IMG/VR virus record: IMGVR_UViG_2869924733_000001 | Span: 1 to 10,216 of that record | Origin: a virus | Taxonomy: Duplodnaviria; Heunggongvirae; Uroviricota; Caudoviricetes | Reading direction: 5' to 3' (one strand) | Length of the DNA: 10,216 nucleotides | In this document: piece after piece, positions 1-10,216 of the stretch | Numbering within the stretch: position 1 is the first letter of the stretch | How the letters are laid out: each line of letters begins with the position of its first letter | Made by a program: the position numbers and the translations under genes | The notes under the pieces: model-generated | The model's database searches: none | Told to the model about the DNA's origin: nothing | The model's input: the letters and a program-made list of their open reading frames with translations, nothing else

Positions 1-291
1 TTACGTACGCAGCCGCTCCGGTTTTTTCCACTGGTAAGTCTTTTTCTCGCTCTCCCGGTACATCTCCACGCGGCGACGGTAGGCCAGCAACTCGAGTACT
101 CTGGTGCGTATATTGCGCATATCCACGCCGTTAAGCTCAATACCGTCACGGCGCATCACCTCAGCCACCACACGCGCATAGTTCTCAGCGATAACGCTGT
201 CCGGCTGCGTGGCCTCACGTTTGCCTGCTGCCGGGCTGGCTCCGGTAATGCGGCGAATCATTTTGAGCATTTCGGCTTCTGTCATTGTCAT
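1..291 (-). CDS. Hypothetical protein, last gene of the packaging-region operon in this window
   Basis: ORF 1..315 in track begins with TTG; first ATG at 291 has GGAGG 2 nt upstream, second ATG at 285 has 8-nt spacing. Stop codon occupies window positions 1-3. No Cys, basic C-terminus, no family recognised. Confidence 0.45.
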   Translation of the reverse strand: MTMTEAEMLKMIRRITGASPAAGKREATQPDSVIAENYARVVAEVMRRDGIELNGVDMRNIRTRVLELLAYRRRVEMYRESEKKTYQWKKPERLRT

Positions 292-336
292 GGCCTCCGT
301 GGTGATGGAAAACAATGCCGTAATTGTGGCGGGTCC

Positions 337-394
337 TTCCTGGAAAATGAAACACCGGGGGTAGCCATACGCGCAAAAACGCGCTGTTTATGAG
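337..394 (+). repeat. cos-like inverted repeat copy A (palindrome TTCCTGGAA plus 45-bp core GAAACACCG-N13-GCGCAAAAACGCGCT-GTTTATGA)
   Basis: Core at 349-393 matches copy B (1076-1120, opposite orientation) at 9/9 + 15/15 + 7/8 positions with identical spacing; palindrome at 337-345. Confidence 0.4.
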
Positions 395-463
395 ATTTTT
401 TGAGGGGGTGGTTGTTGTTTAATTGTTTGTTATATCCATTTGATAACTAAGAGAAAACTGAAA

Positions 464-560
464 GCAATACAACAACCTGAGGACGTTTTTTTGATGTTAT
501 GGTTCCCAAAATACCAATTAAATCAAATGGTTTAACAAAAATACGCGGTTGTTGTATTGC
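464..560. repeat. Perfect 14-bp inverted repeat GGTTGTTGTATTGC (464-477 inverted, 547-560 direct) flanking a 69-bp AT-rich spacer; related GGTTGTTGT at 410-418
   Basis: Read directly from sequence; lies immediately downstream of the Nu1-like gene stop (568); on the minus-strand RNA the stem would be followed by a U-rich run. Confidence 0.4.
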
Positions 561-567
561 ATACTTA

Positions 568-1008
568 TTAGCTTTCCTGCTCTGTAACTACAGATTGTTG
601 CAGATGCTCACGGCGAACGGCTACGGCATGACGCCACCCAGCCAGAAAGCCAGCCATTTTATTTCGTGCCTTGCTCACATCTTCCGGCGAGTAGCCGTAA
701 ATCTGCAGACCATTATCAAATCGCTGTTCTGTTTCTTCACTGAAATACTCGTCGCGCTCTGATGAAATCAACCTGGCAACCATAATCTTTTCCAGTGCGC
801 TGGTTTCTCCGTGGTACTCAATAGCATCAAGATGACTTTTACCCATGCACCAGAATAATGTGTGTCCGATGTGATAACCGCCGGACTTTCCGCGATCCGC
901 ATCAAGATACGGCATGCCCTGTTTGGTCCATGCGCGAATAGTGGTTCTGTTGACCTTGAAATGTTCTGCTATTTCCTGCTGACTAACAAAACAATCTTTA
1001 TTATTCAT
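568..1008 (-). CDS. Nu1-type small terminase-like winged-HTH DNA-packaging protein (candidate packaging-redirecting protein)
   Basis: N-terminus FVSQQEIAEHFKVNRTTIRAWTKQGMPYL aligns with lambda Nu1 VNKKQLADIFGASIRTIQNWQEQGMPVL (recalled reference); C-terminal half unlike Nu1; ATG at 1008 with AAGG 9 nt upstream; 146 aa. Confidence 0.65.
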   Translation of the reverse strand: MNNKDCFVSQQEIAEHFKVNRTTIRAWTKQGMPYLDADRGKSGGYHIGHTLFWCMGKSHLDAIEYHGETSALEKIMVARLISSERDEYFSEETEQRFDNGLQIYGYSPEDVSKARNKMAGFLAGWRHAVAVRREHLQQSVVTEQES

Positions 1009-1060
1009 AACGTTACCTTAATAATGCGATTAAATATTAATCAAGTGGTGGTGGTGTACC

Positions 1061-1120
1061 CTTTCCCGGAAAGCGTCATAAATAGCGCGTTTTTGCGCCG
1101 CTCCCGCCCCGCGGTGTTTC
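1061..1120 (-). other. cos-like site copy B: cosN-like GC-rich core, shared 45-bp core, and palindrome CTTTCCcGGAAAG (1061-1073), about 55-110 bp upstream of the Nu1-like start
   Basis: Minus-strand reading CGGGGCGGGAGCGGCGCAAAAACGCGCTATTTATGA matches my recollection of lambda cosN and adjacent bases (CGGGGCGGCGACCTCGCGGGTTTTCGCTATTTATGA) at about 24/36 positions with the same spacing, followed by TTTCCGG as in lambda. Confidence 0.45.
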
Positions 1121-1173
1121 TGATTCTGGAAAGGACCCGTGAAAATTGGGGCGATCACCACCGTTCCGGATAC

Positions 1174-1205
1174 AAAAAAATCGCGAGACCTTGCCAGCCT
1201 CGCGA
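1174..1205 (-). terminator. Rho-independent terminator after the capsid operon
   Basis: Minus-strand RNA: stem UCGCGAG(G) / (U)CUCGCGA with about 9-nt loop followed by U7 (plus-strand A7 at 1174-1180); 14 nt downstream of the 1219..1644 ORF stop. Confidence 0.6.
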
Positions 1206-1218
1206 ACGTTCATTTCAG

Positions 1219-1644
1219 TTACTTAACAGACAGCAACAGCTTTTCATCTTCGGTCAGTCCGGCGTTGCCATCACCGGCTGCTGATCCAACACATTTCGGG
1301 CTGTGCTTTTCCATGTACGCTTCAAACAGAAAAGCCGTTTTCTTTTCCTGCATCATTGCCTGGGCATCCACGGCAGCCAGTAACGTTTGTGCATAGGTTA
1401 CTGTCATTACTTCAGAACCACACTCAATCAGCTTACTGGTGAACTCAGGGTATTTTGATGCCAGCGGTAACGCCTTGATACCCTCTATGCGCTGTTTATC
1501 ACTCTCAGCCTTTGCAGTAAGCACCGTTCGGGCTTCTGTCAGTGATGCGCCATTATTTGCGAGATTTTCCGCAAGCGTCGGGTATTTCTGCGCCTCAGGC
1601 AGTGCCATGATCAATGCTCTGGTTGAATTTGCTTTCTCAGTCAT
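1219..1644 (-). CDS. Hypothetical protein with internal tandem repeat (about 32 aa: ALPxAxKYPxL...), in capsid operon
   Basis: ATG at 1644 with GGTGA 4-5 nt upstream; 14-nt gap after gpD-like stop; two similar segments ALPEAQKYPTLAENLANNGASL / ALPLASKYPEFTSKLIECGSEV. Confidence 0.55.
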   Translation of the reverse strand: MTEKANSTRALIMALPEAQKYPTLAENLANNGASLTEARTVLTAKAESDKQRIEGIKALPLASKYPEFTSKLIECGSEVMTVTYAQTLLAAVDAQAMMQEKKTAFLFEAYMEKHSPKCVGSAAGDGNAGLTEDEKLLLSVK

Positions 1645-1658
1645 AAATCACCACAAAA

Positions 1659-1988
1659 TTATTGCCCTAAAGGCTGCACGGAAATACCGGAACCAACAAA
1701 AGCCGACACTTTTTTCTCGAACGTGTCCGCTGTATCAGGCCAGTTAATTTCATCGATATTAAAAACCCCGCACTTATAAACCTGTGCGCGGTTTTTTGTG
1801 GCCGTGTTAATGTCCGATATGGTCAGATACACCGCCTTACCGGGTGTACCGTCCCACTCAACCATCAGGCCCGCGCCGTTCTGCATCAGCGGAGTTCTCG
1901 CTTTAATTTCTCTGGCACTGGCAAAACAGGCCAGCGTGCTGACCAGTTCCTGCGTGCCGGAAAGTAATTGCGTGTAAGGTGTTGGCAT
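1659..1988 (-). CDS. Head decoration protein, lambda gpD family
   Basis: 109 aa against lambda gpD 110 aa; conserved blocks TPLM, W-G-T, Y-K-x-G-x-F, WP, AF-x-G-x-IS at matching spacing (recalled lambda D sequence); AGGGGA RBS 6 nt upstream of ATG. Confidence 0.8.
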   Translation of the reverse strand: MPTPYTQLLSGTQELVSTLACFASAREIKARTPLMQNGAGLMVEWDGTPGKAVYLTISDINTATKNRAQVYKCGVFNIDEINWPDTADTFEKKVSAFVGSGISVQPLGQ

Positions 1989-1998
1989 ACGATCCCCT

Positions 1999-3054
1999 TT
2001 ATTTCACTTCGACGGTAACAAAGCGACCAATATCCACGGGTACTGGCTGCGGGGCGCTGTGCGTCTGCACGTATTCAATCGCCGGATCGCCCGGTACGAT
2101 ATAATTTTTCGGGTAGTACATCCCCTCAGAAAACCCCTCGCGTGCCGCGTCCTGATCCATGATGGCACCATAAGCAACAAGGCCTTTATTTTCGGTATTG
2201 CCGAAAACCATCATGTTTTGTTTCAGGAAATATTGCTGCTGCCCGTCTTCGTCGTCATAACGACCGGAATAAACCACGAGCGCCACATCACCGAGATACC
2301 CCTTGAAGCTGACAACACCGCCCAAATCTTTTAGCGCAAGTTCAAGTGACGAGTTTGAACCGCGGCGCGTGTCCAGGAGTTCGCGGAATCGACGGAACGA
2401 GCGCAAAATACGCCAGGCTTCGCCACCCATGACGATAATATTTACCGTACCTTTGGAAAAATCAGCGTAAGCCTCAATGTCGCTTATCGGATCAAACGTC
2501 TCGGCATCCTGTTTTGACCATTCTTTCCCGCCAGCCTGTGTAATGTGATTGGTTGCGGGTAATCCCCAGTCAATTTCATAACGCTCGATGCCTTCGCCTT
2601 CGATAACGTTCCTGCCTTTTGTGATGGCATTGACCGCCAGCCATTCAATACGTGCTTTGATGGCAGTGATCTGTTTTTTCTGGCTGTCGTGAACCATTTT
2701 TACGCGGCGTAGTGCCGGGGAAGACTGACCATTGCCGATCTGTTCTCCAGCCATGCGCATGATTGTTTTAGTGGGATCAATAACGTGTTTGGGCTTCATA
2801 TAACCCGGCGTGAAAGTGTTCGTTGTAAAACCTTTGTCACGCATAACCTGACTGCCTGACATTGGTGAACAAAACGGACTCATGACCACGTTTTCAATGT
2901 CCAGCGTATCAAGCGCAATATCTCGCGTACTGAACGTGGCGATATTCGGAAAAAACAGCGTCGTAAAGAGCGGATTAAATTTAAATTCCGGCACATCTTC
3001 GCGCCCGATATTTTTCAGTAGCGTTGGTGTGCTTACCAGTTGCAGCGCTGTCAT
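1999..3054 (-). CDS. Major capsid protein, lambda gpE family
   Basis: 351 aa; long collinear similarity to lambda gpE along the whole length (e.g. FKFNPLF, TFTPGYMKPKH, NHITQAGGKEWSKQDAETFDPISDIEAYA, LDTRRGSNSSLE, DVALVVYSG, YPKNYIVPGDPA, QTHSAP), roughly 45-50 percent identity by eye. Confidence 0.9.
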   Translation of the reverse strand: MTALQLVSTPTLLKNIGREDVPEFKFNPLFTTLFFPNIATFSTRDIALDTLDIENVVMSPFCSPMSGSQVMRDKGFTTNTFTPGYMKPKHVIDPTKTIMRMAGEQIGNGQSSPALRRVKMVHDSQKKQITAIKARIEWLAVNAITKGRNVIEGEGIERYEIDWGLPATNHITQAGGKEWSKQDAETFDPISDIEAYADFSKGTVNIIVMGGEAWRILRSFRRFRELLDTRRGSNSSLELALKDLGGVVSFKGYLGDVALVVYSGRYDDEDGQQQYFLKQNMMVFGNTENKGLVAYGAIMDQDAAREGFSEGMYYPKNYIVPGDPAIEYVQTHSAPQPVPVDIGRFVTVEVK

Positions 3055-3260
3055 TACTCACCCCCATGAGGCTGATTCATGCCAAGCGCAGCGCGTAAAT
3101 GACTGCGTACCATCCAGCCGACTGACGGCTTCACCATGCACAACGGATCAAGGCCGACTTTTTTCCCTGCCTCTGCGTTCTCCTCAAAGCGCGCATTAAG
3201 TGCGGCGATAATATCGGGGCTGATGTACACGGATACACCGCCCGGCTTCTGTGTTCCCAT
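3054..3260 (-). CDS. Small hypothetical protein (68 aa) upstream of and translationally coupled to the capsid gene
   Basis: ATG at 3260 preceded by GAGGAA at 9 nt; its TAA stop overlaps the gpE-like ATG (TAATG). Track ORF extends to ATG 3326, which lacks an RBS. Confidence 0.45.
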   Translation of the reverse strand: MGTQKPGGVSVYISPDIIAALNARFEENAEAGKKVGLDPLCMVKPSVGWMVRSHLRAALGMNQPHGGE

Positions 3261-3312
3261 AAATGAGATTCCTCTTTGACTAAAAAACAAACATAACGAA
3301 AAGTCAGCCATG

Positions 3313-3342
3313 ATTTTAATCATCATTGCATTTTTTGCAATG
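3313..3342 (-). promoter_or_regulatory. Candidate sigma70 promoter of the capsid operon with overlapping palindromes
   Basis: Minus strand: -35 TTGCAA (3335-3340), 16-bp spacer, -10 TAAAAT (3313-3318); -35 embedded in inverted repeats CATTGCA-N5-TGCAATG (3324-3342) and TTGCA-A-TGCAA (3335-3345). Confidence 0.35.
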
Positions 3343-3439
3343 CAATTGACTGTTATTGCAAATCATGAAATCATCATGCCGTGGTTTTAATCCTTGTACC
3401 ACAGAGTCATTCAGCATTAATCACGTTAGCGGTATGAAA

Positions 3440-3471
3440 TCCCCCGGAACCTCATCCCGGGGGATTTTTTT
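3440..3471 (+). terminator. Plus-strand intrinsic terminator hairpin (half of a bidirectional pair)
   Basis: 8-bp stem UCCCCCGG / CCGGGGGA, 9-nt loop, followed by T7 (3465-3471). Confidence 0.45.
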
Positions 3472-3475
3472 GCGC

Positions 3476-3503
3476 ACAAAAAAGCCGGGAAAAATCCCGG
3501 CTT
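3476..3503 (-). terminator. Minus-strand intrinsic terminator ending the replication/SSB operon
   Basis: 9-bp stem AAGCCGGGA / UCCCGGCUU with 4-nt loop, followed on the minus strand by UUUUGU; 15 nt downstream of the SSB stop. Confidence 0.55.
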
Positions 3504-3517
3504 CTGTCACTCGTTGC

Positions 3518-3940
3518 TTAAAACGATATGTTATCCCCGTACGGGGCATCATTTCCCGCCTGTTGTTTTGCCCTGTTCAGTGCGTCAGTAGCCTGGCCCT
3601 GCTGGCCTTTTTTGCCGCCCGGTCGCGCCGTTCGCGCACTGATTACGCTGTCTGCGATAACCTGCCAGCCCTGCCGCGTTTCGCCGTTCTGGCCTGTCCA
3701 CTGGCTTACCTGTATGTTACCCGCCACGCTCACCAGTTCGCCTTTGTGGTGTCTGGCCAGTGCGTCGGCCTGTCTGCCAAACGCCAGGACGGATAACCAC
3801 ATCGTCGCCGTTCCGTCATCGGCCTGGCTGCACGGCAGGGGAACCGCCATACTCGCCATCGCCATTTGTGTCCCTTTGCTGGTGGTCTTTAACTGCGGGT
3901 CAGCCACCAGCCGCCCGTAAGCCGCTATCTGTGCTGTCAT
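3518..3940 (-). CDS. ssb: Single-stranded DNA-binding protein (SSB-like, OB fold)
   Basis: N-terminal GRLVADPQLKTTSKGTQMA resembles the SSB motif; conserved W and G-x-V positions; Gly/Gln-rich linker; acidic C-terminal tip DAPYGDNISF comparable to DDDIPF of E. coli SSB; ATGA overlap with upstream ORF. Confidence 0.7.
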   Translation of the reverse strand: MTAQIAAYGRLVADPQLKTTSKGTQMAMASMAVPLPCSQADDGTATMWLSVLAFGRQADALARHHKGELVSVAGNIQVSQWTGQNGETRQGWQVIADSVISARTARPGGKKGQQGQATDALNRAKQQAGNDAPYGDNISF

Positions 3941-4188
3941 GCTGTCACCTCTCCGGTTTTAACGTTGATGGTTGTCACCTGTTCCGCTTCCGCAATTTCC
4001 CGCTCAGTCAGCGTGGCAAAGTTTGCCGCCGCCGTGGTCATGAATGCGCTTATCAGTTCGGGATGTGCTTTCGCGTATCCTTCCCCGGCATGGCGGTCTA
4101 TCGTTCTGATTGCCACCTTTAAGGCGCGCTCTGTCATGTCTAATGCGCGATATTTTGGCGCTGTCTTATCTCTGGTTTTTCTGGTCAT
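3937..4188 (-). CDS. Hypothetical protein (83 aa), first gene after the putative origin, coupled to ssb
   Basis: ATG at 4188 with GGGGAG 9 nt upstream; stop overlaps SSB start (ATGA). Confidence 0.5.
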   Translation of the reverse strand: MTRKTRDKTAPKYRALDMTERALKVAIRTIDRHAGEGYAKAHPELISAFMTTAAANFATLTEREIAEAEQVTTINVKTGEVTA

Positions 4189-4197
4189 TCCTCACTG

Positions 4198-4391
4198 CTC
4201 CCCACTTTTACTACCCACTTTTTGAAATTACCCAACGTCTCCCCACTTCTTTTTTTTGTGATTCTAACGTGATGTTTTTCAATGTATTTTTTATTCCCCA
4301 CTTTTTGGGGTATATACAGGTGAGAAAGTGGGGAATCGCGTTTCAATTTTGTTAAATTCCCCGCACTCCCCACTTTTACTACCCACTTTTT
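4198..4391. repeat. Iteron array, putative replication origin: 26-bp perfect direct repeat CTCCCCACTTTTACTACCCACTTTTT (4198-4223 and 4366-4391) plus further CCCACTT copies
   Basis: Seven copies of CCCACTT(T) (six direct, one inverted at 4327-4333) in about 195 bp; inverted pair CCCCACTTT / AAAGTGGGG flanks AT-rich GGTATATACAGG; immediately 3' of the replication protein gene. Confidence 0.5.
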
Positions 4392-5805
4392 ACAGTGGGC
4401 GCACGTCATCACCGTCAATAGCAATAACGCCATCACCTTCCAGCTTGTACAGCCAGCGCCGGAAGTGTTTCATCTCATACCCCAGCTTTTTCATATCATC
4501 GCGCAACAACGGAATTGTGCATTTATCGCCGCGCTGTGTGCGTGAACGGATACAGCCCCATAGCGCGGCATGATTCTCCGTCTTGTTCCCGGCTTCCTCG
4601 ATGCGCTCCAGTTCAACGGGTGGGCGCGGTTTATCCACAACCACCAGCGACGTGATTAACTCCCCGTCAGTGTCGGTAAAAAGCTCCACCACACGTAAAT
4701 CGTATGCAGCCTCTTTCAGTTCCTCCGCGTCCTTCATTTTGGTGCAGGAGATAACCAGGGCTTCACTGTCTGCACCTTCACGGCGAATACGGTATTCAGC
4801 GTCCAGAGATGCACGAAATGCACTGGAACCACGCGCTCCCTTTGTTTCATCCTTGCCGGAATGGTGAACCACCAGCACCGTGGACCCTGTGCGTCGTTTC
4901 AGTTCGTCACATCCACGGATAAACGCCCCCATATCCCGCGCGTCATTTTCATCATTACCGCCAAAACACCGCGCCAGCGTATCCAGAATAATCATGCGTA
5001 CCGGTTTACCCGTTTCCCTTTCAACCTGGCGGGAAGCGATGACCATTTCATCGACATCAAGCGGGACTGCCGGAAAAATCGGGCGGTTTACCAGGTACAG
5101 ATTTTCCACCCGTTTATCATTAACGATTTCCCATGCCTTGATACGGCGGGGGACACCAATGCCACCTTCACCGACAACATACATCACCGAACCATGCGCC
5201 ACCCTGCGGCCTCCCCAGTGGCGACCCGTGGCAACATGACACGCCCAGGAACACGCGAGGAACGATTTATAGGAACCGCTCGCGCCGTATGTGCTACACA
5301 ATGAATTAGCCGGAATCACGCCTTTAACGACATAATCAAGCTGTGTGTCGTACCCTGCAGATCCAATGCTCATTGGTAGCGTGGTTTTTCGCTGGCTGTA
5401 TTGCTCGTCAGTAAGAATTTCCCCGCGCTCTGCCTGTTCGCGGATCCGTTGCAGGTAGTCGTGCCAGTTCTCCAGCTTCTGGCTGTGCATTCCATCAGGG
5501 TAATAATTCGCATCCCGTACACCTGCCGCCGCCAGCTTTTGCCCGATAGCATTAATATTTGACGGCTTGATGTGGCCTGCCTTGTACAGCCGGACACAAT
5601 AGCGACCATCGTCGATAATTTTCAGGTCTGCCAGTTCGTCAAGCTGGCTGTCTCCAAGCCATACAGGCGGAACATTGTCGCCAGCAAGTCGCCCGTCCTG
5701 CTCCTGCCATTGTTTCGCGTGCGCCCAGGCATCACTACCCGCAAAAATAATGACTTCGGTCATTTTGTCGTGTGGCTGTTTTTTTAAGTTCGGTGCCAGT
5801 TTCAT
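4390..5805 (-). CDS. Replication protein: primase/helicase-type, RecA-fold (AAA_25 / RepA-like) ATPase with N-terminal toprim-like region and C-terminal putative DNA-binding region
   Basis: Walker A YGASGSYKSF, Walker B VRMIILDTLA, and LVVHHSGKDETKGARGSSAFRASLDAEY typical of RepA/DnaB-like helicases; ATG at 5805 with AGGGG 9 nt upstream; ATGA overlap with upstream ORF. Confidence 0.85.
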   Translation of the reverse strand: MKLAPNLKKQPHDKMTEVIIFAGSDAWAHAKQWQEQDGRLAGDNVPPVWLGDSQLDELADLKIIDDGRYCVRLYKAGHIKPSNINAIGQKLAAAGVRDANYYPDGMHSQKLENWHDYLQRIREQAERGEILTDEQYSQRKTTLPMSIGSAGYDTQLDYVVKGVIPANSLCSTYGASGSYKSFLACSWACHVATGRHWGGRRVAHGSVMYVVGEGGIGVPRRIKAWEIVNDKRVENLYLVNRPIFPAVPLDVDEMVIASRQVERETGKPVRMIILDTLARCFGGNDENDARDMGAFIRGCDELKRRTGSTVLVVHHSGKDETKGARGSSAFRASLDAEYRIRREGADSEALVISCTKMKDAEELKEAAYDLRVVELFTDTDGELITSLVVVDKPRPPVELERIEEAGNKTENHAALWGCIRSRTQRGDKCTIPLLRDDMKKLGYEMKHFRRWLYKLEGDGVIAIDGDDVRPL

Positions 5806-6101
5806 TTTGTGCCCCTGAATGCGTTAATCATGTTTTTCATTTTCTGAATATTTGCCCGTGCCTTTGCGTTGCTGGTGGGCTGTCTGCGTGGTGTGGCCTG
5901 TACCAGCGAAAAATCACGCCGGAACTGATAAACAGGCATCACGCAGTCATAGCCGTACCCATCACGGCGGTAAGTAACGCACCGTCCCGCCACGCTTTTA
6001 ATCGTTACCGTGCCGCCGTAGTTATCCCGGAAAATATCGCCGGGGCGGATTTCAGGCCGAGCGGGGCCGCTGGCAGTAAAGCCAGAATTTTTCTGTTTCA
6101 T
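5802..6101 (-). CDS. Hypothetical protein (99 aa), replication operon
   Basis: GAGGAA RBS 9 nt upstream of ATG 6101; stop overlaps primase start. Confidence 0.5.
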   Translation of the reverse strand: MKQKNSGFTASGPARPEIRPGDIFRDNYGGTVTIKSVAGRCVTYRRDGYGYDCVMPVYQFRRDFSLVQATPRRQPTSNAKARANIQKMKNMINAFRGTK

Positions 6102-6106
6102 GGTTT

Positions 6107-6316
6107 TTATTCCTCTGCGCGGGTCTTGTCGTGTATTTCCATAACCGCGTTTAATTCATCAATAACCGGGGTTAACAGAGTGCTGAAAGCAGAAAATAAA
6201 TCCCCCCCCTGTTCGGCATGAACTTCGGTTAATTTAATTAATACCGCTTTCATTTCCAGTGCCCGGTTTAATGCATTCTCAGAATGAATAAGAACATCGA
6301 AAGGGATTTCATTCAT
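6107..6316 (-). CDS. Hypothetical protein (69 aa), replication operon; contains a G8 tract
   Basis: GGAGG 9-10 nt upstream of ATG 6316; coding-strand G8 at 6202-6209 encodes QGGD. Confidence 0.5.
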   Translation of the reverse strand: MNEIPFDVLIHSENALNRALEMKAVLIKLTEVHAEQGGDLFSAFSTLLTPVIDELNAVMEIHDKTRAEE

Positions 6317-6569
6317 GGCTCACCACCTCCGGGAATTTTCTTCTGTAACGCGCCTCTGCAACATATTCCGCATAGTCCGACGCAATATTGAGAATCTCCG
6401 CACCCTCTGACCTGTAGCCACTGGTATTGATAAGAAAAAATGCGGCTTTTATCATGTCAGCAACGCCCAACAATGCGTCTGCTTCGTGTTCCGGTGCGCC
6501 ATCAAATTCCTGTTTCAGGGCATTAAAACGATCATCACGCATAACCCCCCCCATTTTCACAATCAGCAA
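6309..6569 (-). CDS. Hypothetical protein (up to 86 aa; start uncertain: 6569, 6554 or 6542)
   Basis: ORF from track; candidate starts overlap the end of the upstream Icd-like ORF and a G8 tract (6545-6552); 8-nt overlap with downstream ORF start. Confidence 0.4.
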   Translation of the reverse strand: MLIVKMGGVMRDDRFNALKQEFDGAPEHEADALLGVADMIKAAFFLINTSGYRSEGAEILNIASDYAEYVAEARYRRKFPEVVSHE

Positions 6570-6969
6570 TCAGAATGGCTTTGGCCTCATTCAGTGCCAT
6601 ATCAGCGGTAAGCTGTGCGTAGGCCAGCGAATGCGGGATTATTGCCCCTGTATATTCCGGCTCTCTGGTAATGTGTTTTTCTGCGGTTGCTGCCGTGTGT
6701 GAAATATCAATCAGCGCGCGCATCAGTGTTTTGATGGCTTCGGCGGCTGCGTCCGGACGGGTGTTATTGCACATGGTGCACCCCTGACGAATACGGGCGG
6801 CGAATACCATCACACAGCCATCAGGAGATTGCTGGCGTGCTTCCTGTTCGCTGGTGGCCTCAATGGTAATCACGCGCGGTTGTGCTGTGCTCAGGGCGAT
6901 AAAACGCCAGATGTATTTATTCAGGTTGTGCGAGTCCCGCCCTTGCGGGTGTGTGGTATGATTTCTCAT
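6535..6969 (-). CDS. Icd-like protein (P4-type host cell division inhibitor family, tentative), first gene of the leftward operon
   Basis: ATG at 6969 with GAGG 5 nt upstream; N-terminus MRNHTTHPQGRDSHNLNKYIWRF...FAARIRQG resembles Icd-like proteins of P4-type prophages (from memory); it is the 3' part of the spurious 476-aa track ORF. Confidence 0.45.
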   Translation of the reverse strand: MRNHTTHPQGRDSHNLNKYIWRFIALSTAQPRVITIEATSEQEARQQSPDGCVMVFAARIRQGCTMCNNTRPDAAAEAIKTLMRALIDISHTAATAEKHITREPEYTGAIIPHSLAYAQLTADMALNEAKAILIADCENGGGYA

Positions 6970-7064
6970 AGCTACCTCGATACTCTCGTTATCGTTGGTG
7001 GTTAGAAGCCCGTTGGTGTTGGTAGCACCTGCGGGCTTTGTCTTTTCATCGATTACCTCAATAA

Positions 7065-7148
7065 AGGTGTCAGCCACTATACTAGTAACAGGTGTCAGCC
7101 ACGTCAATAGTGTTTTTCCATTTTCTTGTGTGTATACTGTCAGCCACC
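7065..7148. promoter_or_regulatory. Divergent promoter/operator region with three copies of (A)GGTGTCAGCCAC
   Basis: Repeats at 7065-7077, 7090-7102 and 7137-7148; leftward promoter -35 TTGACG (7102-7107) / -10 TAGTAT (7079-7084), 17-bp spacer, with repeats in the spacer and at +1; rightward -10 TATACT (7133-7138) abutting repeat 3. Confidence 0.55.
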
Positions 7149-7168
7149 TAATAACAAGGAAATCAGAT

Positions 7169-7348
7169 ATGGCAACGAAAGCAGTTAATGGAAAATCCAA
7201 AAAACTTGAGGCACGAGTCCCCCATGCAATAGCTGACGCTGTAGAAAATTTAAAGGAAGAAGGTGAAAGCACTGGGCAATTTATCGTTTCGGCACTTGAA
7301 GGCGAGATCAAACGCCGCCAGCGTCGCAAGGCCAAAGAGCAGGAGTAA
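7169..7348 (+). CDS. Ribbon-helix-helix (CopG/Arc-like) DNA-binding protein, candidate repressor of the switch
   Basis: 59 aa; AAGGAA RBS 7 nt upstream of ATG; beta-strand KKLEARVP then two helices (HAIADAVENLKEEG, STGQFIVSALEGEI), basic tail; only convincing plus-strand gene. Confidence 0.6.
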   Translation: MATKAVNGKSKKLEARVPHAIADAVENLKEEGESTGQFIVSALEGEIKRRQRRKAKEQE

Positions 7349-7405
7349 CCATCACCAGCGCCGTGGTGTGAGTAACTACGGCGCATTGCTATGCAGGACA
7401 ACACA

Positions 7406-7558
7406 ATGACCGATAAAGAATTGACCAAAACATTATCACCGGCACGGAAAAGACGGCGCAGAAAGATAGAACATGAATCAGAAAGATTCGCGCCATGTGC
7501 TTTTGCCCTCGAGCAATTCCTTAAAGAGTACAGGGAAAAGCGCTCATTGCAGGTATGA
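7406..7558 (+). CDS. Small basic ORF (50 aa), possibly co-transcribed with the RHH gene
   Basis: ATG 7406 with AGGA 7 nt upstream; protein MTDKELTKTLSPARKRRRRK...; below the track length cut-off; followed by a plus-strand terminator about 100 nt downstream. Confidence 0.3.
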   Translation: MTDKELTKTLSPARKRRRRKIEHESERFAPCAFALEQFLKEYREKRSLQV

Positions 7559-7658
7559 CAACGAACTGAACCAGACTGATTGCATTGCCCACCAGCCGCA
7601 AATGTGGCATTGTTGGCGATGCTCATGCGTTGGGGATAACGCGAAATTTGTGTCGCAG

Positions 7659-7686
7659 GGCCACCGTGACTGGTGGCCTTTTCTTT
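7659..7686 (+). terminator. Plus-strand intrinsic terminator (end of RHH / small ORF transcript)
   Basis: 7-bp GC-rich stem GGCCACC / GGTGGCC, 6-nt loop, followed by TTTTCTTT. Confidence 0.55.
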
Positions 7687-7739
7687 ACCTGTTATCCGGC
7701 AATAGTGGCGCTTCTTCACACAGTTGATATAATTCCCCT

Positions 7740-7810
7740 GCACTGATCCAATTTTTTCGCAGCAGGTTAATTGTTCGCAAGGGCGCTCCGGTAACGGGGC
7801 GCTTTTTGTT
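7740..7810 (+). ncRNA. Candidate small RNA (about 70 nt) between a consensus extended -10 promoter and an intrinsic terminator, convergent with alpA
   Basis: TGaTATAAT at 7725-7733 (-10 hexamer matches consensus 6/6); terminator stem GCGCTCCG / CGGGGCGC with GTAA loop (7783-7802) plus TTTTTGTT (7803-7810); no ORF in between. Confidence 0.35.
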
Positions 7811-7828
7811 ATGTGCATCGCTCCCCCC

Positions 7829-8041
7829 TTACGCCGTTTGCGTCCTGCGAGTGGATGCAAGATAAGCATCGAGATCAGAGCGCATATACAGCACTTTGCG
7901 CCCCAGCTTATGGAAAGGGATTTTTTCTTTACCAGTACACGCCCAGTTAGCAAGAGTCTGGACACTTACCCCCAAATGCTCGGCGGCTTCTTTGCGGGTC
8001 ATTTTTTCTTGAGAATTGATTACGTTCACAAGTAACTCCAC
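7829..8041 (-). CDS. alpA: AlpA / excisionase-family HTH DNA-binding protein
   Basis: MTRKEAAEHLGVSVQTLANW...KIPFHKLGRKVLYMRSDLDAYL matches the excisionase/AlpA HTH pattern; track start is GTG 8041 (AGGT RBS), alternative ATG at 8002. Confidence 0.75.
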   Translation of the reverse strand: MELLVNVINSQEKMTRKEAAEHLGVSVQTLANWACTGKEKIPFHKLGRKVLYMRSDLDAYLASTRRTQTA

Positions 8042-8112
8042 GTATTACCTATTGTTACCGTGAGCTACTTTAGTTTTTTGCTGTGGGGGCGGTAAGGTGA
8101 AAAGCTGATTTT

Positions 8113-8161
8113 CCCAGGGGAAAGCAGGTAAGCCAGGGGAATAGCTGCTTTTACCCTGGCT
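8113..8161. promoter_or_regulatory. Direct repeats CCAGGGGAA(A/T)AGC(A/T)G (8114-8128, 8133-8147) with two mutually exclusive hairpins, between the AT-rich gene and alpA
   Basis: Stem A AAAGCAG / CTGCTTT (about 8120-8149) and stem B AGCCAGGG / CCCTGGCT (8131-8161) overlap, so only one can form. Confidence 0.3.
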
Positions 8162-8174
8162 GATAAAAAATTTT

Positions 8175-8795
8175 TTATGCGTACTCTGGCGGGATCACCA
8201 GTTCTGAGTTTTTGTACTTTTTGTCAGGTGGTGGCGGCGGGGCTAGTTTTTCACTTTTTATCCAGCACTTGATTGTTTCCTCGCTTATCCGGCCCTCATA
8301 TCGACGCGACAGCTTCGCAATCATTTTTGTTTTGGATAGTGCTGGTTCTTTCTTCCATGTGGCTTTCATGATGGCGACTATCTCATCATGTAAATAGTGG
8401 CGGGGACCGGAGGCGGCTTCACTTCTTCTTCTTTTGATAACACCATCAGATATTAATCTAATAACTTTGCCACCACCTTTTGAGGCTATACAGGCTCTTT
8501 TGTATACCCATGAAAGATCCTCAGCAGTATTTTTATATCCAAGTAGCTCTAGTATTAAGATGGATTTCAGAAATACATTAGCACTATGACCTATGTTTAT
8601 CTCCCCTGTTTTGTCTAACGCTAAATATCCTTCCTTATCAATCCTTGCTGCTATTCTTTTCCTTTCTGCTTTTCTATAATATTTAAATTTATCTTTCAAT
8701 TCATACACATGCTCGCTCATTTCCTTTTCGACTTGCTCAAGATAATCATATAATTCAATTCTTGTATCATCATCCACTACATCCCAAACTTTCAT
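8175..8795 (-). CDS. Hypothetical protein (206 aa), AT-rich 5' half, translationally coupled to the integrase; candidate accessory/cargo gene
   Basis: ATG at 8795 overlaps the integrase TGA (ATGA); codons for about the first 110 aa lie in visibly AT-rich DNA (8460-8795) while the 3' half is of ordinary composition; proline run PPPPP near C-terminus; no family recognised. Confidence 0.6.
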   Translation of the reverse strand: MKVWDVVDDDTRIELYDYLEQVEKEMSEHVYELKDKFKYYRKAERKRIAARIDKEGYLALDKTGEINIGHSANVFLKSILILELLGYKNTAEDLSWVYKRACIASKGGGKVIRLISDGVIKRRRSEAASGPRHYLHDEIVAIMKATWKKEPALSKTKMIAKLSRRYEGRISEETIKCWIKSEKLAPPPPPDKKYKNSELVIPPEYA

Positions 8796-10216
8796 TTAGA
8801 CGATACCTCTAAATTTTTGTTTATGATTTTGAAAATTAATTGGCGTTTTTCATCATCACTCATGCTCTCCAGTGCAGAAAGCAATTGCGCATCAATAGAT
8901 TTTTTACTCTCCACCAGCCCGGCATGTTCCAGAATTGCCCGTTCTATCCGTGACGCTGGCTCCAGCAGTTCATCAGCACCAAAATGTAAATACCCCTGCG
9001 TTACGTCAGCACTTCTCATAGTGCGGTGATTCATCAGGCGCTTGAGGGTGTAATTACCCACGCCCACCAGTTCGGCAACCGTTCCGAACGTCCGGCGCGC
9101 ATCGTGCCATTTGAATGGTACAGGGGAGAGCATTTCATCGTTCGACTCTGGGACGGTAGCCGCGCTTATCCGGTCTATGATGTGCCGTGTTTCCTGAATC
9201 ACTCCCTTTGCTCCAGGAAACACCAGTACATCATCAGCGTTTTTTATTTTCAGCCTGCGGCGGAACATTTCCCGCAACGTATCGGTGATCGGTAGCTCGA
9301 GCGGATCCCCGTTTTTCGTGGTATCTATCCAGAAAAAACGACCGCCCATATTCACGCGATCCCACGTAAGGCCAAAAATTTCTGATTTTCTCAGTCCGGT
9401 AAAAAGTGCCATTTCCACGGCATCACATACCGTCACCGCTATATCATCCCTTTCCTGTTCGCCCTGGTCACGTACAGCAGCTACAGCAGCAAACCAGCGG
9501 GGAAAATCATGCAGGCGGATACGTTCCGTTTTTCTTACCGTTCCGTGCCACTGTCGTTTGGTACTCAGTACCAGCGTCGGCGGATCCGGTAAAAGAGTAT
9601 TACCCGCATCATCACGGTAATGATCATGCGCAAACCGACACACGGCACGCAGCGCACGCGCCCATAAATCGGCCTGTGCCTTGCTTCCTGTGCCAACCCC
9701 AGCCCGTAACGTGGTTTTATCAGCACCGAACCATACAGCCCCGTTTGTGACAGCCTTATGCCGCTGTTCCACCCGTTCGCGGGTAATACTGGCGAGGGTA
9801 TGGGCCATCCAGTCACCGGAATAATTCTGTAATATGCTGCGGTACTGTTTTTCTGTGGCGGGTTTCAGGCGGTGGCCACGATTTTTTATGTAGGCTTCAA
9901 GCGCCTCATTCAGCGTTATCATGGCCTTGTTGTTCGTGCGCTTCGCTATGTTCGGGTTTTTCCCCGTTGTGGCGACCTCTCCAAGGAGTTCCATAGCTTT
10001 AGCCCTGGCATTGTCCACACTCAGATCGGGAAAACGCCCCAGCGTTGCACGAATAAATTTTCCGTTACGCTTACGGGAAATGCAGAAACTTTTCACACCA
10101 GACGAACCCACACGGACACGCAGCCCGTTAACCTCCGTATCACCATATTCGACCTGTCCATGTTCCGGCGTTGGCAGTTCTGCAATTTTTACTTTAGAGA
10201 ATCTGAATAATTTCAC
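8792..10216 (-). CDS. int: Tyrosine recombinase / integrase (P4-type, N-terminal arm-binding domain); 5' end at window edge
   Basis: N-terminal arm-type domain (KIAELPTPEHG...GLRVRVGSSGVKSF...RATLGRFPDLSVDNARAKA); catalytic-domain motifs LRKSE, HDARRT, NHRT...GYLH; ORF starts with GTG at the last window base, so the true start may lie beyond. Confidence 0.9.
   Translation of the reverse strand: MKLFRFSKVKIAELPTPEHGQVEYGDTEVNGLRVRVGSSGVKSFCISRKRNGKFIRATLGRFPDLSVDNARAKAMELLGEVATTGKNPNIAKRTNNKAMITLNEALEAYIKNRGHRLKPATEKQYRSILQNYSGDWMAHTLASITRERVEQRHKAVTNGAVWFGADKTTLRAGVGTGSKAQADLWARALRAVCRFAHDHYRDDAGNTLLPDPPTLVLSTKRQWHGTVRKTERIRLHDFPRWFAAVAAVRDQGEQERDDIAVTVCDAVEMALFTGLRKSEIFGLTWDRVNMGGRFFWIDTTKNGDPLELPITDTLREMFRRRLKIKNADDVLVFPGAKGVIQETRHIIDRISAATVPESNDEMLSPVPFKWHDARRTFGTVAELVGVGNYTLKRLMNHRTMRSADVTQGYLHFGADELLEPASRIERAILEHAGLVESKKSIDAQLLSALESMSDDEKRQLIFKIINKNLEVSSK

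Follow-up and report, generated by a model that had tools for sequence, protein, structure and literature searches.

The short RNA Sar of phage P22 is reportedly a constitutive cis-antisense RNA of approximately 69 nucleotides (nt), transcribed in the immI region from its own promoter inside the operon that it targets, and is said to pair with the region where translation of ant starts, ant being an antirepressor gene that encodes a protein of the Bro network. The OOP RNA of phage lambda, a 77 nt antisense RNA with its own promoter and intrinsic terminator, converges on cII, and its pairing, together with cleavage by RNase III, lowers expression of that gene. In phages P1 and P7, the antisense-type RNA c4 reportedly blocks translation of icd, and Rho-dependent polarity is said to prevent transcription of ant. 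Among the phage satellites, P4 carries in its Bro zone a long open reading frame (ORF), eta, that is translationally coupled to an alpA homologue and the end of which includes the nested gene kil; a constitutive promoter within eta lies ahead of kil, and termination is prevented when eta is translated, such that the upstream promoter reads through (PMC10111431, which summarises Forti et al. 1999 and Sabbattini et al. 1995 on P4). The PLE satellite of Vibrio cholerae encodes a small RNA (sRNA), SviR, that acts in trans on satellite and helper-phage transcripts (bioRxiv 10.1101/2022.04.08.487710). Here, these systems are compared with a predicted sRNA gene found close to alpA in a stretch of viral DNA of 10,216 nt (IMG/VR record IMGVR_UViG_2869924733_000001, positions 1 to 10,216; Caudoviricetes), which was analysed at its full length and is referred to below as the window.

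When compared by BLAST to complete Escherichia coli genomes, and judging by the annotation of the matches, the window lies in a phage-inducible chromosomal island (PICI) of the EcCICFT073 group and not in the P4-type satellite supposed in an initial annotation that had been made from the sequence alone. The island is a capsid-forming E. coli PICI, with EcCICFT073 as a relative, and its regulatory region includes the candidate RNA gene, which is on the plus strand and convergent with alpA. This gene is predicted to be a discrete transcription unit made up of a promoter, an RNA of approximately 70 nt and an intrinsic terminator. The initial annotation, the interpretation of which is partly supported, had proposed such a unit, and this part of it is supported by the comparison of related loci, in which the -10 element is invariant, the terminator hairpin covaries, G·U pairs point to the plus strand and homology ends at the terminator. 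The sRNA is unannotated and has no Rfam family, and the region has instead been annotated repeatedly as an 'Icd-like' or 'BRO-N' pseudogene.

The predicted promoter is a perfect extended -10 element of the form TGnTATAAT (TGATATAAT, positions 7725-7733, plus strand), which was correctly reported in the initial annotation and is the only one in the window (sole TGNTATAAT, either strand). It is preceded by a conserved spacer (7681-7724) that lacks a good -35 element and, upstream of this, by an intrinsic terminator, here designated T1 (7657-7688, hairpin 7657-7680, -16.6 kcal/mol), that was found in the terminator scan and had been missed. T1 is predicted to end the plus-strand ylcI-orf55 operon and to isolate the sRNA promoter from upstream transcription. 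With a start placed 7 nt past the -10 element and a 3' end in the U-tract of a second terminator, T2, the RNA would extend from 7740 to 7811. The 5' half of this RNA is predicted to be single-stranded and includes the box GCAGCAGGTTAATTGTTCG (19 nt, 7759-7777), which is the best conserved part of the transcript. The order of elements on the plus strand is, hence, operon, T1, promoter, approximately 50 nt, T2.

T2 (7779-7811) is a strong terminator in which the arms AAGGGCGCTCCG and CGGGGCGCTTTT surround a GTAA loop to form a hairpin of 12 pairs, seven of them G-C (7779-7806), and the tail, TTTTTGTTAT, ends at 7812, with the T-run continuing to 7811. The 8 bp stem, GTAA loop and T-run of the initial annotation are all present, and that stem, which includes one U·G pair, is the core of the 12-pair hairpin. 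On its own, T2 folds with -20.4 kcal/mol (z-score -4.6), a value equalled in none of 200 shuffles, and the predicted transcript (7740-7812) folds with -23.9 kcal/mol (z-score -2.9) on the plus strand versus -13.7 kcal/mol (z-score -0.2) on the minus strand. The counterpart of the predicted RNA in EcCICFT073 lies at NC_004431.1, complement 1380009-1380084, and the box is unpaired in the CFT073 fold. A small hairpin at 7759-7778 that appears in the minimum free energy fold was rejected as a structure, its outer pairs being broken in many alleles and the hairpin being absent from the CFT073 fold. The earlier statement that no ORF lies between the promoter and the terminator holds for the plus strand, where no ORF of at least 20 aa was found between 7746 and 7811, but not for the minus strand, which carries a long open frame through the whole feature.

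As a single sequence, these features are not significant because TGNTATAAT is expected by chance 0.24 times per window, and is present at least once in 45 of 200 shuffles, and because promoter-like and terminator-like sites are no more numerous in the window than in shuffled sequences. The significance comes from conservation. The block from 7648 to 7810 was searched for in 5426 complete E. coli genomes and found in 306 of them, and pattern scans of IMG/VR added approximately 95 loci. A covariance model (R1) built on 7737-7812 identified one copy in each of 98 loci (98/98; 56-107 bits; 36 distinct sequences), and 47 distinct alleles of the block from T1 to T2 were aligned. In this alignment, TGATATAA (7725-7732) is unchanged in all 47 alleles and T7733 is kept in 46, while the bases on either side vary. 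Three of the invariant bases, G7726, A7729 (the -11A) and A7732, occupy third-codon positions of the open minus-strand frame and, as these are wobble positions, coding on the minus strand cannot explain the invariance of the -10 element. The spacer (7681-7724) is nearly invariant in 42 of the 47 alleles and has been swapped wholesale for unrelated sequence in five, in which the replaced stretch is the upstream 30 nt and the -10 element is kept. The promoter element is, hence, conserved beyond its surroundings, as is expected of a sigma-70 sRNA gene. As a separate observation, the spacer itself may be a site for a regulator of the sRNA promoter.

Both T1 and T2 consist of a terminator hairpin and U-tract with covariation on the transcribed strand. 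In T1, compensatory changes from C-G to G-C are found in nine alleles and from G-C to U-A in one, and the observed score was reached by none of 500 shuffles. The 22 alleles of T2 all fold with -14 to -21 kcal/mol on the plus strand versus -5 to -15 kcal/mol on the minus strand. A compensatory change from C-G to A-U occurs in two T2 loci that represent one lineage (L100 and L103), and in a second major form, allele b (GCGGYTCC-TTATC-GGGGCCGC), the stem is kept in a shifted register with a 5 nt loop. Pair counts made on the model-fitted alignment understate the covariation because of this shift and, for this reason, allele b was counted separately. When read on the plus strand, G·U cells outnumber A·C cells by 80:1 in T2 allele a, 18:1 in T2 allele b and 44:0 in T1, which indicates that the structure belongs to a plus-strand RNA. 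Homology among the loci ends at the T-run of T2, with at least five unrelated flanks starting right after it, and this terminator, thus, marks the edge of a module.

The module appears to be restricted to PICIs of E. coli. Outside this species, a pair of pattern scans covering one genome per species gave only a chance match in a Roseburia metagenome-assembled genome, and a search of phage records gave no match and of plasmid records a single E. coli record. Taken together, these comparisons make it likely that the RNA is real and is made from its own promoter.

The alternative that survives best is that no discrete RNA is made, T1 and T2 being tandem terminators that end the ylcI-orf55 operon and shield alpA and int, with TGATATAAT silent or unimportant. 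In 11 variant loci, here called type II (L008, L015, L025, L046, L050, L068, L078, L085, L086, L094 and L097), which share the EHESERFAPCAF motif with orf55, T1 and the TG extension are missing, TATAAT is replaced by TATCAT or TATTAT followed by a 12 nt insertion, and the box and T2 lie approximately 75 nt after the stop of a plus-strand gene, i.e. in the position of a 3' untranslated region, as this explanation would have it. It is also favoured by three loci (L106, L111 and L115) that have a T1-like hairpin alone at the same place, beside the start codon that follows alpA, and by the finding that a convergent terminator after alpA is common even when the module is absent. Relatives of AlpA were collected and 28 distinct loci without the module were examined. 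In 16 of these, the AlpA match is followed, 27-33 nt later, by the start of a convergent intrinsic terminator (background 0.024 per 155 nt), and the hairpins of these terminators (L106-L144), which lie approximately 30-50 nt past alpA, are unrelated to one another. Thirteen loci were examined for the start codon, and in 12 of them a distance of 12-18 nt separates the stem from an ATG that is preceded by a Shine-Dalgarno (SD) sequence and opens an ORF of 145-386 codons, and the exception (L141, 6 nt from stem to ATG) reflects an internal ATG picked by the script.

Against this terminators-only explanation, a good terminator, T1, is present 45 nt ahead of the -10 element, and a second one 120 nt later needs a reason. 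TGATATAA is, moreover, invariant where the minus-strand frame leaves bases free and persists when the block upstream of it is replaced. A -10-like hexamer (TATTAT, TATCAT or TAAAAT) is also found at the homologous place in distant relatives. In one of these, L141, in which AlpA is 57 % identical, a weak but recognisable homologue of the sRNA includes the box with a 2 nt indel, a different hairpin, a T-run and TATTAT at the place of TATAAT in the window, and is antisense to the first 25 codons of an intact gene of 148 aa that follows alpA. This gene, designated gene X (L141 2713-3156; L147-L160 601-1044), has no Pfam family. The gene X loci (L136, L141, L147-L160) have no plus-strand gene that would feed a terminator, but keep the hairpin, the box, the -10-like hexamer and frozen synonymous sites. 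Among 14 relatives of gene X, the variability at third positions is 0.02-0.04 in codons 11-40 versus 0.11-0.21 elsewhere in the gene. Frozen synonymous sites of this type are a signature of an overlapping functional element and fit an embedded antisense RNA gene. We consider, on balance, that a pair of terminators with no RNA gene is an unlikely explanation.

If made, the RNA would be perfectly complementary to the minus-strand transcript that leaves alpA. The initial annotation had suggested possible transcriptional interference with alpA (7829-8041, minus strand; stop TAA at 7831-7829). However, the RNA does not overlap alpA, as its 3' end is approximately 18 nt from the alpA stop in the window and up to 300 nt from it in relatives, and the long ORF that starts right after alpA is the likelier target. 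An open frame of 476 codons extends on the minus strand from 7965 to 6535, and the SD sequence GGGGGGAG (7828-7821) abuts the alpA stop, with an ATG at 7818-7816, 11 nt past this stop and 6-8 nt from T2, such that a long eta-like open frame can be defined at 6535-7828. The predicted RNA (7740 to approximately 7811) ends 5-8 nt from the AUG of this ORF and covers its codons 3-27, a relationship that was missed in the initial annotation. An identical layout was seen in 13 further loci, and translational coupling of the long ORF to alpA is suggested by this geometry.

From the ATG at 7818, the frame crosses the antisense strand of T2, the sRNA promoter, T1, orf55, ylcI and a divergent promoter region before it runs in frame into an Icd/Kil-like ORF, the Icd-like domain being residues 302-345 of the long ORF. 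The equivalent ORF in CFT073 has 428 codons and ends at the Icd-like stop. In 61 of 83 distinct loci, a stretch of 900 nt is free of stops in one minus-strand frame, whereas the remaining frames of that strand average 16 stops and the best plus-strand frame has at least four. As 72 of 77 of the 900 nt regions fall in one cluster, a substitution test was used to evaluate the open frame, and 19 stop-creating substitutions were observed in the long frame versus 31 expected, compared to 34 versus 28 and 47 versus 35 in the two remaining frames. Within the module, substitutions lack a periodicity of three bases (0.101, 0.125 and 0.090 at the first, second and third codon position, respectively), the peptides encoded by T2 alleles a and b differ (KSAPLPERPC and KAAPIRNRLS, respectively), and searches of the long ORF against Pfam and NCBIfam gave no match outside the Icd-like part. 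What seems to be preserved is, hence, the openness of the long frame and not its product. The pseudogenes (incomplete 'Icd-like', 'BRO-N' or hypothetical) that the Prokaryotic Genome Annotation Pipeline (PGAP) places over the module on the minus strand (L001 5990-6160, L004 2711-3179, L005 2677-3204 and L002 6848-7385) are probably a side effect of the long open frame, together with a truncated Bro-N fragment in CFT073-type loci, and not a real gene.

The position of the RNA relative to the start codon differs among the loci. In class A (approximately 35 loci) the RNA lies at the start codon as it does in the window, whereas in class B (CFT073-type, approximately 22 loci) and class C (L002-type, approximately 17 loci) the ORF has a Bro-N-like N-terminal extension that places the start codon 245 nt and 89 nt further upstream, respectively. 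The remaining 24 loci, class D, are without an evident start codon. No minus-strand terminator was found between alpA and the module when the window was scanned. In EcCICFT073, AlpA is required for expression of a reporter in ORF3, which lies downstream of alpA (PMC6092414), and sense transcription would, thus, be expected to cross this site on induction.

These features would be consistent with a cis-antisense RNA that probably brakes the read-through by which the satellite is switched on. In a quiescent island, the constitutive antisense RNA would pair with the few transcripts that read through from alpA, and pairing would either block initiation at the leader ORF (class A) or trigger cleavage of the duplex within the ORF (classes B and C). 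The downstream RNA, no longer translated, would then be ended by Rho or degraded, with Rho and RNase III being the factors presumed to be involved, and head-on transcription could add interference. In this way, leaky transcription of alpA would be kept from icd and the replication genes until a helper phage turns on the AlpA-autoactivated promoter, when sense transcripts would exceed the antisense RNA and the switch would flip. A GC-skew profile, used as a hint of rut sites, was uninformative. The whole statement, that a cis-antisense RNA limits read-through from alpA into the replication genes, draws on sequence evidence, with transcription and pairing in vivo deduced from it, and is put forward tentatively, as somewhat short of an even chance.

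Several observations weigh against it. The loci that carry the module are mutually related, and the allele counts given above are not counts of independent events. In approximately 40 % of the module loci (classes B and C, including CFT073) the RNA would pair inside the ORF and not at its start, and the 24 class D loci show no evident start codon. The long frame contains stops in 22 of the 83 distinct loci, and the depletion of stop-creating substitutions is only about 2-fold. In the type II loci, the box and T2 could be no more than the end of the plus-strand gene, namely its 3' untranslated region and terminator. Action in cis alone would also leave the added conservation of the 19 nt box unexplained. 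Finally, literature searches gave no RNA-seq, transcription start site or Northern data for this locus, and searches on the sequence itself, PICI sRNAs, CP-933C sRNAs and AlpA antitermination found nothing on the candidate RNA.

When the candidate is set beside the known systems, the functionally closest appear to be Sar of P22 and OOP of lambda. It resembles Sar in size, in being of predicted cis-antisense type and in the layout of convergent promoters in an immunity or switch region. However, there is no sequence or structural homology and, while Sar is said to cover the ribosome-binding site of ant, the RNA described here would stop short of the AUG and cover codons within a leader ORF, the product of which seems to be irrelevant. 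Like OOP, it would be a short antisense RNA with its own promoter and terminator that converges on a regulatory gene, but OOP overlaps the 3' end of the cII coding region whereas this RNA overlaps the ORF after alpA and not alpA itself, and again there is no homology.

In genomic logic, the closest systems appear to be CI of P4, with eta and kil, and the c4-icd-ant system of P1. The P4 CI RNA and the candidate both lie in a Bro zone, between an alpA homologue and the replication genes. As in P4, a long ORF follows the alpA homologue, its coupling to which is predicted from the geometry, with a Kil/Icd-like ORF nested in frame at its 3' end and an internal promoter-like site (TTGACG-17-TAGTAT, 7107-7079). 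In P4, and as proposed here, transcription into the replication genes would depend on a small RNA, and termination would be averted when the long ORF is translated. However, CI is encoded on the sense strand, is processed from a leader transcript and pairs with seqA and seqC in trans, whereas the candidate RNA is on the strand opposite to alpA, icd and the replication genes, with its own -10 element and terminator. The Icd-like ORF likewise recalls the icd of P1 and P7, but c4 is sense-encoded, processed and a member of the Rfam C4 family, and the Icd-like ORF here lies at the far end of the leader ORF and is not the pairing site.

Though the initial annotation had drawn a parallel with the P4 immunity RNA, identity with C4/P4 CI RNA (Rfam RF01695) was ruled out, as three defining features were tested and none was present. 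At E<=1 for the full window and at a permissive E<=10 for 6900-8200, searches with the Rfam models C4, isrK (RF01394) and c4-a1b1 (RF03163) gave no match, and across all of Rfam only generic terminator-like matches below threshold were obtained for the window and for 6900-8200. In the positive control, P4, the same three models were detected next to vis (74.9 bits, 60.8 bits and 44.1 bits, respectively). The opposite strand and the lack of a second complementary site, considered next, also speak against the parallel.

A further possibility is that the 19 nt box pairs in trans with mRNAs of the helper phage or the host, in the manner of SviR, with Hfq or ProQ as a possible partner. Conservation within the RNA is highest in the box, which is predicted to be unpaired, and the window sequence includes a U-rich stretch (7752-7757) and a U-tailed terminator, the usual layout for binding of Hfq. 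A related PICI, L002, encodes a protein of the ProQ/FinO family, but the window encodes none. There is also precedent for a satellite sRNA that acts on a helper phage (bioRxiv 10.1101/2022.04.08.487710). However, the search for complementarity across the element that the initial annotation had proposed gave nothing above chance whether by mismatch pattern, duplex energy or exact k-mers: there is no second site for the box in the window with up to three mismatches, sliding duplex energies are within the range of shuffles, and the longest perfect complement elsewhere is 10 nt. In phage lambda, the longest complement is 11 nt and shuffles give 9-12 nt, the scans for targets in trans having covered the window and lambda but neither the host genome nor the true helper phage. 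SviR is, like the candidate, encoded by a phage satellite, but the two are unrelated in sequence and host, and no trans target was found here in either sequence scanned. Action in trans is, on this evidence, quite improbable. As a separate observation, the ProQ/FinO-family RNA chaperone of the related PICI (L002 1930-2472) could bear on an RNA-based switch.

A minus-strand origin of the conservation, in the 5' coding region that follows alpA or in the structure of its mRNA (for instance, a hairpin just behind the AUG by which translational coupling to alpA is tuned, or what remains of a Bro-network or gene X protein), with the plus-strand signals as by-products, is very improbable: though one minus-strand frame is open across the module in 43 of the 47 alleles, MHITKSAPLPERPCEQL of the window aligns with the N-terminus of intact gene X, MDEMKNARATERQHEQ, the spacing from stem to ATG is fixed at 12-18 nt and PGAP places Icd-like or BRO-N pseudogenes across the region, there is no 3-base periodicity, T2 alleles a and b differ in peptide and keep the hairpin, the 2 nt indel shifts the frame of L141 relative to that of the window while the box nucleotides are kept, pairs that are G·U on the plus strand would become C·A mismatches in the mRNA, the fold of the minus strand does not surpass that of shuffles and the long ORF has no Pfam or NCBIfam match outside its Icd-like part.

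A broader view of the proposed antisense RNA is that Gram-negative PICIs of the EcCICFT073 group may be held silent by an RNA gate and not by a master repressor, the antisense RNA at the junction of alpA and a 'conduit' ORF setting the threshold of the switch. The only job of the conduit ORF would then be to be translated, so that Rho spares AlpA-driven transcription across an antisense-oriented cassette of more than 800 nt on its way to icd and the replication genes. We regard this view as possible but doubtful.

The island has genes on both strands. On the minus strand are int (8792-10216), an ORF of 206 aa, alpA itself, which encodes a regulator of the excisionase type (Pfam HTH_17, 6e-13; NCBIfam excise domain, 5.6e-10) that is annotated as AlpA family in its relatives, and the Icd-like ORF (6764-6970, with its own ATG at 6970), a Kil-like cell-division inhibitor (NCBIfam phage_ICD_like, 1.6e-18) that PGAP also annotates in relatives. 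Further genes on this strand are small ORFs, a RepA-type helicase, SSB, and capsid and decoration genes. The plus-strand cassette, divergent from icd and convergent with alpA, starts with a gene of the ylcI/ynfO family (7169-7348; NCBIfam YlcI_YnfO_N, 4.2e-17; also annotated in relatives), the product of which is a possible repressor, followed by orf55 (7391-7558), a homologue of which is annotated in CFT073 and O157; T1 lies approximately 100 nt downstream of orf55. The pepT-roxA locus of CFT073 and that of O157:H7 have the same gene arrangement. In the divergent promoter region (7068-7147), between icd and ylcI, the promoter-like site on the minus strand (7107-7079) is surrounded by three identical TGTCAGCCAC repeats (7068-7077, 7093-7102 and 7138-7147), which probably serve as operators at which a repressor encoded by the PICI, perhaps the YlcI-like protein, would bind.

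Two further observations concern other parts of the window. Just downstream of ssb, toward the capsid genes, two adjacent GC-rich hairpins with U-runs (3434-3503, minus strand) give a sub-threshold match to ncr1175 in Rfam (37.5 bits, gathering score 60) and are most likely tandem terminators. A plus-strand ORF of 84 aa (7473-7727) that overlaps the end of orf55 and T1 has a sub-threshold match to a CHC2 zinc finger of the DnaG type (19.6 bits, cut-off 24.9), which is probably due to chance or a remnant.

The layout of this region is unusual in that a repressor-like cassette and a predicted sRNA gene are nested, antisense, in a long frame that links alpA to the replication genes, and it would extend the idea derived from eta and kil of P4, namely protection of read-through by translation, to an ORF that is far longer and seemingly meaningless. 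On the broader and doubtful view given above, the recurrence in many AlpA-bearing satellites of convergent terminators, formed by unrelated hairpins, at 12-18 nt from the start codon that comes first after alpA would suggest a general and undescribed control point in the induction of satellites. A constitutive antisense RNA located where AlpA-driven transcription leaves alpA would be a concrete candidate for the missing negative control in the quiescence of Gram-negative PICIs and, as the candidate RNA lies in the model island EcCICFT073 itself, strains and reporters for a direct test exist.

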